Positions 35,210 through 39,303 of a stretch of 64,000 nt of DNA are shown here, one piece after another. Each line of letters begins with the position of its first letter. Within the stretch, counting starts at the first letter, position 1. Source of the DNA: an uncultured Phycisphaerales bacterium. Lineage in GTDB: Bacteria; Planctomycetota; Phycisphaerae; Tepidisphaerales; Tepidisphaeraceae. The DNA is taken from assembly GCA_963755915.1 (NCBI GenBank), contig CAVWLP010000002.1:4864001-4928000 (forward strand), written 5' to 3'. The notes beneath the pieces were generated by a model that made no database searches, was not told where the DNA came from, and saw nothing but the letters and a program-made list of their open reading frames with translations. A program made the position numbers and the translations under genes.

Positions 35210-36764
35210 TCACCTCGCATATTCCACCGAGCGCACCTCGCGGATGAGCGTTACCTTGATCTCGCCGGGATAATTCAGCTCGTGCTCGATCTTCTTGGCG
35301 ATGTCGCGGGCGATTTTGGCGCTGATGCGGTCGTCGACCAGCTTGGCGTCGACGATCACGCGAACCTCGCGGCCGGCCTGGATGGCGTAGGCCTGGCGTA
35401 CGCCTTCGAAAGTCATGGCCAGGTCTTCCAGCTCCTGGAGGCGCTTGACGTAGCGCTCGAGGCTTTCGCGGCGGGCGCCGGGGCGGCTGGCGCTGATGGC
35501 GTCGGCGGCCATGATGATCGGCGGTGTAGGGCGTGGTCGGCGGGAACGTCGCCGTGATGGGCTTCGGCGGCGTTGAGAACCGCCTCGGGCTCGTCGAATC
35601 GGCGTAGAAATTCCTTGCCTAGCTGGGGGTGGCCGCCTTCCTGCTCGTGGTCCATGGCTTTGCCGATGTCGTGGAGCAGGCCGGCGCGGCGGGCGAGGTT
35701 GCCGTCGAGGCCGAGCTCGTCGGCGATCACCTGGGAAAGATAGGCGACTTCCAGCGAATGCTTCAGCACGTTCTGGCCGTAGCTGGTGCGGAAGGCCAGG
35801 CGTCCGAGCATGGGGATGATCGGGCTTGGCGACCTGGAGGTTGGCCTCCTGGGCGGCTTCTTTGCCCGAGGCGGATCAGCTCTTCGTCCATCTCCTTGCT
35901 GGTCGCGGTGACGACCTCTTCGATGCGTGCGGGATGGATTCGGCCGTCCTGAACGAGGCGGTCGAGGGAAATGCGGGCGATTTCGCGGCGAACGGGGTCG
36001 AAGCAGCTGACGACGACGACGCCGGGCGTGTCGTCGATGATGACATCCACGCCGGTCGCTTTCTCGAAGCTGCGGATGTTGCGGCCCTCGCGGCCGATGA
36101 CGCGGCCTTTCATGTCGTCGGTGGGGATGGTCACCGTGCTGACGGTGTGATCGGCCGTCTGTTCGGCGGCGTAGCGCTGGATGGCCTGAAGGATGATCTG
36201 CCGGCTCTTTTCCTTGGCTTCGTCCTGGGTCTGCTCGGTAATTCGCTGGATGATGGCGCCTGCTTCGAGCTTGCAATCGTCCTCGATGCGCTTGAGGAGC
36301 ATTTCCTTGGCCTGCTCGGGAGACATGCTGGTGAGCTGCAGTAGCCGGTCGCGCTGCTCGCGCAGAATTCTGGCAAGCTCTTCTTCCTTGCCGGCCAGGG
36401 ATTTTTCGCGCTGGGCAATGCTTCGCGTCCTGATCGTCGAGGTGTTTTTCCTTGACGGAAAGCGTGTCGAGCTTGCGATCGAGGGTGTCTTCGCGCTTGG
36501 CGAGGCGGGCTTCGAGCGACTTGAGCTCGTTGCGGTCTTTTTCGGTTTCCCGCTCGAATTGCTCTTTGCGCTTGAGTTGTTCCTGCGCGCGGCCAGTTCG
36601 ATTTCCTTGGCCTTGTTCTGGGCCTCGGATTGGGCGTTGTTGCGAAGCTGTTCGGCTTCGAACTTGCTGCGGTTGATGGCGCTATTGGCCATCATTTTCA
36701 TCGCGACGGCGGTACAGGCCACGCCGACGACCAGGCCGATCAGGAGATACAAAATGATTTCCAT
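35210..36764 (-). CDS. rny: Ribonuclease Y, several frameshifts
   Basis: N-terminal membrane anchor, coiled coil, KH domain ([14 protein letters not shown]), [15 protein letters not shown] motif (LLHDIGKA), [14 protein letters not shown] and [12 protein letters not shown]. Confidence 0.95.
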
Positions 36765-36848
36765 GAATCCCACCCGAGTTGGTTAACTCGCAATGCGGAT
36801 ATAAACGAAATACCCCTGATTAGACGGGTGGGTGTTGAGCAGCGCGTT

Positions 36849-37106
36849 TCAACAGCAGTCTGAAGCGCGTGCCTGGCATTGCCCAATGAAAGTCACTGTG
36901 GGAGGTGCTCGCGAAGGGAGGATGATCCACCGGCGGGTATTGGACCGGACGGGGGAGTTTAGATCGAGCCGCACTGCAAGCTGGGCCGGCAAAAGTTGCC
37001 GGCGCCAGAGCTCCGCCAGGCGATGGGAGAGCGCGAGCAGCAGCCCGAGCAGGCCCAAAGCCATGAGAACTGTCTTCGTGAGTATTCCCAAAATGAGGAC
37101 GTTCAT
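36849..37106 (-). CDS. Putative 85-aa leader/arrest peptide (transmembrane segment + RAPP) upstream of rny
   Basis: MNVLILGILTKTVLMALGLLGLLLALSHR...RRWIILPSRAPPTVTF..., with RAPP codons at 36911-36900, on the same strand as rny. Confidence 0.6.
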   Translation of the reverse strand: MNVLILGILTKTVLMALGLLGLLLALSHRLAELWRRQLLPAQLAVRLDLNSPVRSNTRRWIILPSRAPPTVTFIGQCQARASDCC

Positions 37107-37223
37107 TTCGAACCGTCGAATCAAGGAACTGTGGGGCGAGGGTCTATCCGCTCCTGACCACCGCCCTTTCGGATGCACACCGGAATCAAAAAAGACCGAA
37201 TGCGATCCAAATCTACTGCTCAT

Positions 37224-37251
37224 ATTTTACGCACATGGCGTTAAGTTTCAA
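37224..37251 (-). promoter_or_regulatory. Putative sigma70 promoter for the uORF-rny transcript
   Basis: Minus strand TTGAAA, 16-bp spacer, TAAAAT. Confidence 0.5.
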
Positions 37252-37265
37252 GATGGATAAATGGG

Positions 37266-37877
37266 CTAGGAATGGTGGGAATGTGGACGACCGGGCACAA
37301 CGGGAGGGGGTAGAGAGGCGGCGGCAAGACGATCCAGGCCGGAAATTACCTCTGGGTTGCGGGTTGTCCACCAGAGCTGATGGTGGTGGTGGATTGTGCA
37401 AACGGTTTTTTGTGCGGGGAATGCGAGGGAGAAGTCGCTGGCGGTGAGGTTTTGCAATAGGCTGCGGAGGGTGATTTCGAAGGTGGGCTGCTCCGATGGG
37501 GTGAATTCGACGGCGGCGGCGCTGGTTAAACCAATCAGGGACTGCGGATCAATGCTGATCTCGTGCAGGAGTTGCGGCATCCAGGTTCGGCTTCCGTAGT
37601 TCAATTCGAAGGACCAGTGACTGCCGGGCATTATCCAGGCGATGCCGGGCAAGAGCTGAAGCCATGCCTGGGTCGCGAATTTGGATTGGTCGGCGGAAGT
37701 AACGATCCGGAGATTGTCGCGCATCTGGGGCTTGATTGTGGGATCGTCAGATTCAGTCCATCCTCTAATGATCCCTCCGGACGGGAAGCCGAACGCCCCG
37801 CCGTTAAAGTAGTGGCATTCGAGTCCGTCGGCGGTTAATTGGGCCAGGACCTGGGAATAGTCGATCACCCGGGGCAT
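37266..37877 (-). CDS. Hypothetical protein
   Basis: Likely start MPRVIDYSQV at 37877. Protein-like composition (HWSFEL, CTIHHHHQLWW). Confidence 0.7.
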   Translation of the reverse strand: MPRVIDYSQVLAQLTADGLECHYFNGGAFGFPSGGIIRGWTESDDPTIKPQMRDNLRIVTSADQSKFATQAWLQLLPGIAWIMPGSHWSFELNYGSRTWMPQLLHEISIDPQSLIGLTSAAAVEFTPSEQPTFEITLRSLLQNLTASDFSLAFPAQKTVCTIHHHHQLWWTTRNPEVISGLDRLAAASLPPPVVPGRPHSHHS

Positions 37878-37893
37878 GAATTGCCTTTTTTCG

Positions 37894-39303
37894 TCAGTCG
37901 ATTTTGAGGCGTTTTTTCCAATTGGCCAGTTGGTCTTGGAAGGGTTTTCCACCCGCGGCGCCGGCGCTGCGGTAGCGGTTTACGACGTTTTTTGCGCCTA
38001 GGGAGTCGTAGACATCTTGGTCGGGGCCCACGGATTGCCATCCGTGGGCTTTCAGGGCTTCGTGGAAATCTTCGAGTTTTAGTTGGGCGAGGGCGGTTTT
38101 TCCTTCTTTTTCGCATTTGGCGACCAGGGTGCCTACCACGTGATGGGCGGTGCGGAAGGGGACGCCTTTGGTTACGAAATATTCCGCTAAGCTCGTGGCG
38201 TCGAGGAATCCGCGCTCGAGGGTGGGCTCGATGTTTTCCTTGATGAAATTCGCGGAGTTTACGATTGCGGCGGCCATGGTTAGGCAACTGGTCACGGTGT
38301 CGTAGGCGCGGAAGACGATGCGTTTGTCTTCCTGGAGGTCGCGGTTGTAGCCGATGGGGAGGCCCTTGAGGATGGTCATGAGGGCGAAGAGATCGCCATA
38401 GACGTTTCCGCAGCGGCCGCGGATGAGCTCGAGCATGTCGGGGTTGCGCTTCTGGGGCATCATACTGCTACTGGTGGTGTACTTGTCCGCGATTTTGATG
38501 AAGGAGAATTCGGTGGTCATGTAGATGATCCACTGCTCGGCCCAGCGGGAGAGGTGCATGGAGATGATGGCGAGGTGAAAGACGAATTCGATGGCCAGAT
38601 CGCGCTTGGCGGTCTGTTCGATGCTGCTTGGGGTTACGGCGCCGAAGCCCAGGAGGGAACGCGTCGCTTCGAGATCGAGCGGGAGGGAAGTGCCGGCGAT
38701 TGCGCCGGAGCCGAGGGGATTTTCCATCTCCTTCAGTCGGAATCGGCCCATGCGGTTGAAGTTTTCCGAAAGCATCGAGCACCAGGCGAGGGCCTCGGCG
38801 CCGGCGACGATCGGCTGGGCGCGCTGGAGATGCGTATAGGACGGCATCACAACATCACGGCTTCGGTCGGCCAAAGCGATGAAGGCGCAGCAGAGGGATT
38901 CCAAGGCGGTATCGATTTTGCCACTCGCTTCATCGAGCCAGAGCAGCAGGTCGGTCGCGACCTGATCGTTGCGGCTCCGGGCTGTGTGGAGCTTTTTTCC
39001 GGGTTCGCCGATACGCTCGATCAGCGCGGCTTCGACGACCATGTGGATGTCTTCGAGGCTTTCGTCGAATTTGAATTTGTTGGATTCGATTTCTTTTTCG
39101 ATTTCTTTCAGGCCGGAGATGATGGCGTCGCGTTCGGGGTCGGTGATGAGGTTGACCTTGGCGAGCATTGTGGCGTGGGCGATGCTGCCGGCGATGTCGT
39201 GCTTGTAGAGGCGGCGATCGTAGGTGATGGATTCGACGAAGGACTGGCCGAGGGCGTCGGTGGCTTCGCCGATGCGGGCTTGCCAGGATTTTTCTTTTGC
39301 CAT
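37894..39303 (-). CDS. argH: Argininosuccinate lyase
   Basis: EDIHM, KLHTARSRNDQVATD, MPSYTHLQRAQP, SSMMPQKRNPD and YNRDLQEDK. Confidence 0.96.
   Translation of the reverse strand: MAKEKSWQARIGEATDALGQSFVESITYDRRLYKHDIAGSIAHATMLAKVNLITDPERDAIISGLKEIEKEIESNKFKFDESLEDIHMVVEAALIERIGEPGKKLHTARSRNDQVATDLLLWLDEASGKIDTALESLCCAFIALADRSRDVVMPSYTHLQRAQPIVAGAEALAWCSMLSENFNRMGRFRLKEMENPLGSGAIAGTSLPLDLEATRSLLGFGAVTPSSIEQTAKRDLAIEFVFHLAIISMHLSRWAEQWIIYMTTEFSFIKIADKYTTSSSMMPQKRNPDMLELIRGRCGNVYGDLFALMTILKGLPIGYNRDLQEDKRIVFRAYDTVTSCLTMAAAIVNSANFIKENIEPTLERGFLDATSLAEYFVTKGVPFRTAHHVVGTLVAKCEKEGKTALAQLKLEDFHEALKAHGWQSVGPDQDVYDSLGAKNVVNRYRSAGAAGGKPFQDQLANWKKRLKID

Follow-up and report, generated by a model that had tools for sequence, protein, structure and literature searches.

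A candidate RAPP-type ribosome arrest peptide in the leader of rny, the RNase Y gene, in the Tepidisphaeraceae

Among the closest described relatives of the element reported here are the Sec/YidC monitoring substrates MifM, SecM, VemP, ApdA and ApdP (Sakiyama 2021, PMC7897499; Fujiwara 2024, PMC10987492), and a wider class of small proteins with a signal sequence or transmembrane segment (TM) and a C-terminal RAPP or RGPP motif, whose genes sit upstream of genes well beyond Sec and YidC (Fujiwara et al. 2025, EMBO J, PMC12992588). Here we describe an 85-codon upstream open reading frame (uORF) in the 5' leader of rny, the gene for RNase Y, in a stretch of 64,000 nucleotides (nt) from an uncultured Phycisphaerales bacterium of the family Tepidisphaeraceae (assembly GCA_963755915.1, contig CAVWLP010000002.1, positions 4,864,001 to 4,928,000). 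This whole stretch is referred to as the window, and its own numbering is used throughout. The best explanation as a whole, and one that we consider probable, is that the uORF encodes a RAPP-type ribosome arrest peptide, a reading that comparison of related sequences supports well.

Among the downstream genes named in the main text of PMC12992588 are those for TonB-dependent receptors, YcnI, PCu(A)C, PepSY, DsbA/thioredoxin, sigma factors and SecDF, and seven small RAPP or RGPP proteins of Streptomyces lividans are reported there to stall ribosomes. Tetrapeptides resembling RAPP are strongly excluded from bacterial proteomes, with RDPP and RSPP among those depleted (PMC12992588). Saturation mutagenesis of ApdA and ApdP in the same study finds the motif Arg irreplaceable, position 2 fully permissive (or better) to Gly and partly so to Ser, Asp and Pro, and position 3 partly tolerant of Gly only. 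A further point of comparison is CruR of Bordetella pertussis, a DUF2946 protein encoded by a RAPP uORF that is followed by a 162-bp intergenic region (Roy et al., mBio 2022, PMC9426467). A bubble of C over G begins there in the uORF's 3' part and reaches into the spacer, where the stalled ribosome keeps Rho away and its release leads to termination (PMC9426467).

On the minus strand of the window, positions 37106..36849 make an open reading frame (ORF) of 85 codons and a stop, with the translation MNVLILGILTKTVLMALGLLGLLLALSHRLAELWRRQLLPAQLAVRLDLNSPVRSNTRRWIILPSRAPPTVTFIGQCQARASDCC. Its first 26 residues are hydrophobic, RAPP occupies residues 66-69 of 85 (36911..36900, codons CGA GCA CCT CCC), and the stop codon (36851..36849) lies 84 nt upstream of the rny ATG at 36764. 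An earlier account of the window made from its letters alone, the sequence-only reading, had described an 85-residue uORF upstream of rny with a hydrophobic N terminus and RAPP at residues 66-69, and the translation bears this out. The uORF sequence is sound, because a contig of a second, independent DNA run (X2) over 36763-37064 is identical to the window. The peptide matches no Pfam family at E<=0.1 and has only two similar proteins in a collection of 5.8 billion, and an Rfam scan of 36000-38000 at E<=1 gives no match beyond one chance-level long non-coding RNA. The features of the locus, with Shine-Dalgarno abbreviated to SD, are as follows.

37251..37224, minus strand: promoter-like site TTGAAA-16-TAAAAT, sigma-70-like, 10 of 12 matches in a consensus scan and a consensus match only.
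37099..37112, minus strand: start-region block TTCGAAATGAACGT, peptide F-E-M-N-V, with variants recurring across many genera.
36849..37106, minus strand: the uORF (85 codons and a stop codon), which would encode an arrest or leader peptide, from its translation and family homologues.
37029..37106, minus strand: N-terminal hydrophobic anchor, residues 1-26, predicted N-out/C-in from a TM-like window and flank charges.
36912..37028, minus strand: linker, residues 27-65, fast-evolving in family and genus comparisons except for the tunnel-proximal block NTRR..(L)PS.
36900..36911, minus strand: RAPP core, from motif counts in the family.
36849..36899, minus strand: tail of 16 codons plus stop, the stop lying inside a predicted hairpin at 36872..36839 (centroid fold).
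36765..36848, minus strand: C-rich spacer between the uORF and rny, from sequence, folding and family alignment.
36832..36826, minus strand: CCCACCC within the spacer.
36800..36795, minus strand: hexamer ATCCGC within the spacer.
36790..36775, minus strand: stem-loop within the spacer.
36775..36769, minus strand: SD-like GGGTGGG within the spacer.
35210..36764, minus strand: rny (RNase Y), with its own N-terminal TM anchor, matched in pieces by TIGR03319.

The promoter-like site would put the transcript start about 110 nt ahead of the uORF, and leader sequence downstream of this site is covered by an RNA-library contig (X10, 37016-37180).

TIGR03319 served to locate rny, first in 41 relatives and next in each of the 141 genomes of the window's order; this order consists of one family, the Tepidisphaeraceae. 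Sequence upstream of rny was read to a maximum of 800 nt, and the 121 genomes with at least 400 nt upstream were usable, the G051 and G105 regions being left out. The scan called for a same-strand ORF with a TM-like window, a linker of 20-70 residues, one of R[AGSD]PP, RASP, RAGP or RAPG, and a tail of at most 50 residues. This architecture is present on the rny strand in 91 of the 121 genomes, and five others with RAPP (G003, G010, G019, G022 and G112) failed solely the TM or the linker filter, giving a total of 96 motif-bearing genomes in 53 of 70 genera; one of these 96 rows, G014, is from a genome flagged as unpublished, and nothing hinges on it. The frame of the uORF stays open for about 85-110 codons in these 96 genomes, and the architecture also precedes rny at nine of ten named planctomycete loci (named as Tepidisphaeraceae, Tepidisphaerales, Phycisphaerales or Planctomycetota). 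On the antisense strand of the same upstream regions it occurs in 0 of 121, and mononucleotide shuffles of these regions yield it in 18 of 2420. The six frames of the window's own genome (13.25 million residues) contain RAPP 654 times and RGPP 307 times, and just seven ORFs there have a TM followed by a 20-70-residue linker, R[AG]PP and then a short tail. The concern that RAPP might be a chance product of GC-rich DNA is excluded by this conservation across the family (96 of 121 genomes, 0 of 121 antisense), and not by the window alone. The architecture is absent from all 75 genomes of other Phycisphaerae families (0 of 15 and 0 of 60) and from all 67 rny loci of other phyla, four of which have the motif with no TM ahead of it. 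Thus the conserved TM with RAPP or RGPP and synonymous variation that the sequence-only reading had proposed to look for across the Planctomycetota exists within the order and does not extend to the other Phycisphaerae families.

The motif varies among the 96 ORFs within narrow limits, with RAPP in 76, RGPP in eight, RDPP in six, RASP in four and RSPP in two, the Arg being present in all 96 by construction of the scan. Position 2 of R-x-P-P is only ever A, G, D or S, and these natural variants are the substitutions that are permissive in the ApdA and ApdP mutagenesis (PMC12992588), so that the evolution of the family appears to have sampled an arrest-competent set; the natural RDPP and RSPP correspond to motifs that are partly permissive and depleted from proteomes in that study. 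At the nucleotide level there is no such restraint. All six Arg codons are used, as are all four codons of Ala and of each Pro (CCT 25, CCG 28, CCA 29 and CCC 10 at the first Pro), and because every synonymous codon is used at the motif positions it is the amino acids that are held and not the nucleotides. The conserved element extends to PSRAPP, with Pro at -2 in 59 and Ser at -1 in 39 of the 96. In the genus alignment only MNVVILG, NT[RH]R and PSRAPP are held and the rest of the peptide is variable, with 2678 non-synonymous and 745 synonymous codon differences over all pairs, and every gap is of whole codons. These patterns indicate that the peptide is what selection acts on, and the selection resembles one for arrest.

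The geometry of the ORF is also held. The distance from the end of the TM to the motif has a median of 37 residues in the family scan (interquartile range, IQR, 34-39), and that from the motif to the stop a median of 17 (IQR 16-22). Lys and Arg together average 2.71 in the 15 residues after the TM versus 0.79 in the ten before it, and in 78 of the 96 ORFs more positive charge lies on the C-terminal side. Since the flank after the TM is positively charged, the positive-inside rule predicts an N-out/C-in anchor; TM and topology were called here from the TM-like window and flank charge. An N-out TM followed by a linker of about 37 residues would fit a force sensor, in agreement with the earlier suggestion that a TM about one tunnel length ahead of RAPP follows the design of monitoring peptides.

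Two starts, 37106 and 37064, had been considered for the uORF. The first is now favoured, because the MNVVILG block is conserved in many genera together with its surrounding nucleotides (TTCGAnATGAACGTGGT), although the start is probably not the same in every relative. In some genomes the ATG is replaced by ACG or TCG, and there the start is probably the conserved GTG two codons later; this GTG, of N-V-V, is itself replaced by ATG or TTG in G006, G153 and G154. Start-region variants of TTCGAnAtGAACGTGGT, which encode F[DE][MT]NVV, recur in many genera.

Across many genera the sequence around the uORF start (TTCGAnAtGAACGTGGT) is kept even at wobble positions, which points either to a signal for initiation at the RNA level or to a start at the GTG two codons further on.

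By analogy with ApdA, ApdP and CruR, from which the assignment of ribosomal sites is taken over (PMC12992588), the ribosome would stall with R-A-P-tRNA in the P site, at the first Pro codon (36905-36903), and Pro-tRNA in the A site, at the second (36902-36900). Going by ApdA, ApdP, SecM and CruR, the TM would at that moment be just out of the exit tunnel, and its insertion by YidC or Sec would pull on the nascent chain and end the stall. Stall duration would then be a readout of membrane-insertion capacity for N-out anchors, and RNase Y's own anchor is N-out, the same topology as that of the uORF. That the peptide senses membrane insertion is a reasonable inference from topology and spacing.

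How a stall would reach rny is the most uncertain step, and here we favour, with modest confidence, attenuation of the kind described for CruR. The uORF stop is separated from rny by a family median of 134 nt (IQR 103-160; 84 nt in the window), and from the arrest site to the rny start it is about 185 nt. In 87 of 95 genomes the first 90 nt of the spacer contain more C than G, as does the tail after the motif in 68 of 95; the upstream part of the uORF shows this excess in only eight of 95. Both rho and yidC are present in the source genome, the latter at G000:C2:2847941-2848561. The long spacer, the C>G skew and the presence of rho and yidC match the CruR picture, and for these reasons that route is preferred. 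On such a route the C>G-rich stretch, which begins at the arrest site and continues into the long spacer, would be kept free of Rho by the stalled ribosome, transcription would run on into rny for as long as the stall lasts, and release would permit termination, such that poor insertion might raise rny expression.

Two rho-like loci are found in the genome, G000:C3:794178-795414 and G000:C2:2833863-2834939, each matched in two pieces, probably as a result of assembly frameshifts.

Within the spacer most family members share a C-rich module, visible in the spacer alignment as CACGUCAAA..CCUUCCCC..AUCCGC (36795-36832 on the minus strand of the window). The hexamer ATCCGC occurs in 62 of 96 spacers, compared with 11% of 2929 upstream regions of the same genome, usually about 43-75 nt after the uORF stop and preceded by strings like CACGUCAAA and CCUUCCCC. 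It has no conserved pairing partner, the complement GCGGAT being found in only 15 of 96 leaders. Possible roles of the module are as a Rho site, a protein site or a cleavage site. ATCCGC was also considered as a general promoter part and rejected, since CGTC-N15-21-ATCCGC occurs 504 times in the genome with about 498 expected, and ATCCGC itself is not enriched upstream of long ORFs (11%). RNAalifold gives no usable consensus structure for the genus set or for 60 spacers, both alignments being poor.

Several points weigh against an arrest peptide that acts on rny in this way. Ribosome stalling, its release by membrane insertion and the effect on rny are all steps that we infer. The matches are defined by the motif, and related genomes are non-independent samples. 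The motif is missing from 25 of the 121 genomes, including whole genera such as g82, and in some genomes a TM ORF is kept with the motif broken or replaced (PAPP in G011, EAPP in G021, RAPR in G023, RAPE in G073 and SPSPP in G020). Going by the published mutagenesis these five variants should not stall (PMC12992588), and they may reflect decay, assembly error or another function; the four RASP variants are likewise without support from that mutagenesis. There is no clear SD sequence for the uORF in the window, as the sequence-only reading had already cautioned, and gene callers almost never call the uORF as a gene. A SecM-style unmasking of the rny ribosome-binding site (RBS) was considered and is not supported. 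Under equilibrium folding of 95-96 leaders the predicted accessibility of the RBS is unchanged by masks for a stalled or terminating ribosome, with a mean unpaired probability (95 leaders) of 0.337 in the free leader, 0.347 when masked to the stalled ribosome and 0.353 with the ribosome at the stop (0.417 versus 0.414 and 0.421 in an earlier version of the computation). Nor is a conserved SD-sequestering hairpin supported. The SD window of rny is predicted to be mostly paired (mean 0.73), and the energies of duplexes between SD and spacer are not superior to those of shuffles of matched composition (mean z -0.18; 46% of the shuffles do as well or better); because this complementarity is what composition alone gives, no specific masking helix is claimed. 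Since folding lends no support to a ribosome that melts an RBS hairpin, the wiring to rny may differ from that of SecM and MifM.

The RNA evidence, which counts among these points, consists of contigs only, and strand, level and a single transcript are beyond their reach. RNA-library run X11 gives a 184-nt contig identical to 36825-37008, and X10 gives contigs over 37016-37180 (one difference) and 36815-36947 (five differences). A 425-nt contig of X17 covers 36624-37030 with 15 differences and runs from the uORF across the spacer into the first 140 nt of rny. Among the differences listed for these contigs none falls in 36900-36911 and eight fall in the uORF, six of them at third codon positions, which is a weak hint.

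The alternative that survives best, although we think it unlikely, is that arrest and TM together tether the rny mRNA to the membrane and do not sense capacity, with RNase Y made at the insertion site or cutting its own leader in negative feedback. In eukaryotes XBP1u and IRE1 follow the same tethering logic, and a variant given the same low standing would make this locus their bacterial counterpart, with the unpaired C-rich module about 50 nt after the stop as the recognition site. The tether is attractive in that the target is a membrane-anchored endoribonuclease whose N-out anchor shares its topology with the uORF, that the stall lies some 185 nt from the rny start with RBS unmasking unsupported, and that the conserved and apparently unpaired module (ATCCGC in 62 of 96 spacers, with no conserved complement) could serve for recognition or cleavage. 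Autoregulation of RNase Y through its own leader did not, however, turn up in the literature searched; moreover, the module is C-rich whereas the known and published RNase Y sites are A/U-rich, and the C>G skew is more simply explained by a Rho site.

Less probable again is a real arrest that is tuned by something other than insertion, such as a ligand, an ion or linker folding (as copper does for CruR), or the status of prolyl-tRNA or translation factors, with the TM serving for targeting or disposal only. There is precedent in CruR, whose release is independent of its signal peptide (PMC9426467), and the authors of PMC12992588 regard the source of pulling force for non-Sec arrest peptides as open. 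Here, however, the linker evolves fast and its genus alignment has no conserved Cys/His pattern or other ligand-like motif, the TM and its distance from the motif (IQR 34-39) are conserved as a force sensor needs, and EF-P does not relieve RAPP arrests (PMC12992588).

We give little credence to an ordinary small membrane protein with its own job, in which RAPP causes no regulatory stalling and the position by rny is plain synteny. The long life of the ORF in the family and the retention of a TM ORF with no motif in G088, G102, G113, G011 and G021 would suit such a protein, but its sequence is almost unconstrained outside the anchor and motif, unlike that of a structural protein, and the variants seen are exactly the arrest-permissive ones. 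RAPP-like tetrapeptides are moreover excluded from proteomes, and the small signal-peptide or TM carriers that were tested did stall (PMC12992588). Least credible of all is a conserved RNA element, with a CCUCCC-like string as anti-SD or structural element and the open frame incidental. In its favour, the minimum-energy fold of the window allows GCACCUCCC to pair with the rny SD GGGUGGG, and folding of the whole leader is somewhat better than that of its shuffles (z -2.48). Against it, every synonym is used at the four motif codons, 96 genomes keep the frame open over some 85-110 codons, indels in the genus alignment are of whole codons, and Rfam has no match.

The source genome is a three-contig assembly of 81% completeness (GCA_963755915.1), in which rny is spread over three frames. 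Relative to this assembly, contigs of X2 have one additional G behind 36584 and lack a base at 36420, and because of these two differences at least two of the frame breaks are assembly indels; the rny breaks look like such errors and not like a pseudogene. Other genes of the window may carry the same kind of assembly error. Upstream of the leader a 228-residue ORF (37266-37952, minus strand) matches no Pfam family; its synteny holds through the genus and in some further genera, and it contains a conserved block, ...TVCT(V/I)HHH(K/H)QLWW....

Where it is present in bacteria, RNase Y initiates a large part of mRNA decay, and to our knowledge the control of its own level is poorly understood. If the arrest-peptide reading is true, a nascent-chain sensor in the rny leader ties global RNA turnover to membrane state, or to any other factor that releases the stall, and RNA metabolism joins export machinery, metal uptake and redox folding among the functions served by RAPP-type arrest peptides. 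RAPP is well characterised and stalling can thus be tested quickly in reconstituted translation, for which the 96 natural variants form a ready mutational series (RAPP, RGPP, RDPP, RSPP and RASP, together with the Arg-replaced ORFs). The locus also illustrates that surveys of predicted proteomes miss leaders of this kind, the rny leader ORF being almost absent from protein databases.

The words 'ribonuclease' and 'rny' occur 0 times in the main text of PMC12992588, whose figures and supplements list further gene groups, and 0 times in Fujiwara 2024 (PMC10987492). No paper pairing RNase Y or rny with arrest peptides was found in the literature searched, a scope that leaves the figures and supplements of PMC12992588 outside, and the sequence-only reading, which knew of no such pairing, agrees with this. 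The rny leader ORF was probably invisible to the PMC12992588 survey, which used predicted proteomes, given that the ORF has just two database relatives.

Compared with the Sec/YidC monitoring substrates, the rny leader ORF has the same N-terminal TM or signal about one tunnel length before a C-terminal arrest motif, and its RAPP core is identical to that of ApdA and ApdP. Its predicted N-out/C-in anchor resembles that of MifM, which has this topology. The tunnel motif of SecM, FxxxxWIxxxxGIRAGP, is absent from the peptide. Unlike SecM, MifM, VemP, ApdA and ApdP, which usually precede secA, secDF or yidC, the gene downstream is rny (TIGR03319), and for this reason the uORF is not a strict Sec/YidC monitoring substrate; it differs also in that about 185 nt separate its arrest site from the start of the next gene and in that masking by a ribosome in silico leaves the predicted accessibility of the RBS unchanged.

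CruR is similar in layout (PMC9426467). Both have a RAPP uORF, a long intergenic region (162 bp in CruR, a median of 134 nt here) and a C>G stretch that runs into the spacer, and in both translational coupling is ruled out by distance. They differ in that the rny leader ORF has no DUF2946 match and no CXXC copper motif ahead of RAPP, that its N-out TM looks uncleaved whereas CruR has a signal peptide, and that RAPP lies about 17 residues before the stop here and three in CruR. The window's genome also has a second RAPP ORF, at about G000:C2:4413989-4414297 on the plus strand, with a TM or signal, a His/Cys-rich part and RAPP five residues before the stop. It is directly upstream of a TonB-dependent receptor gene (frameshifted in the assembly) that is followed by TonB/ExbB/ExbD-like genes, and it matches the published CruR-like class; RAPP leaders are thus used elsewhere in this lineage too.

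The rny leader also resembles the class described by Fujiwara et al. (PMC12992588), being a small ORF with a localisation signal (a TM here) and R[A/G]PP near its C terminus, on the same strand as and upstream of a gene that is not for export, and differing from the members described in its main text in having rny as that gene. As judged from sequence, the rny leader fits the RAPP-type arrest peptide class in every testable feature, with a target that is unexpected.

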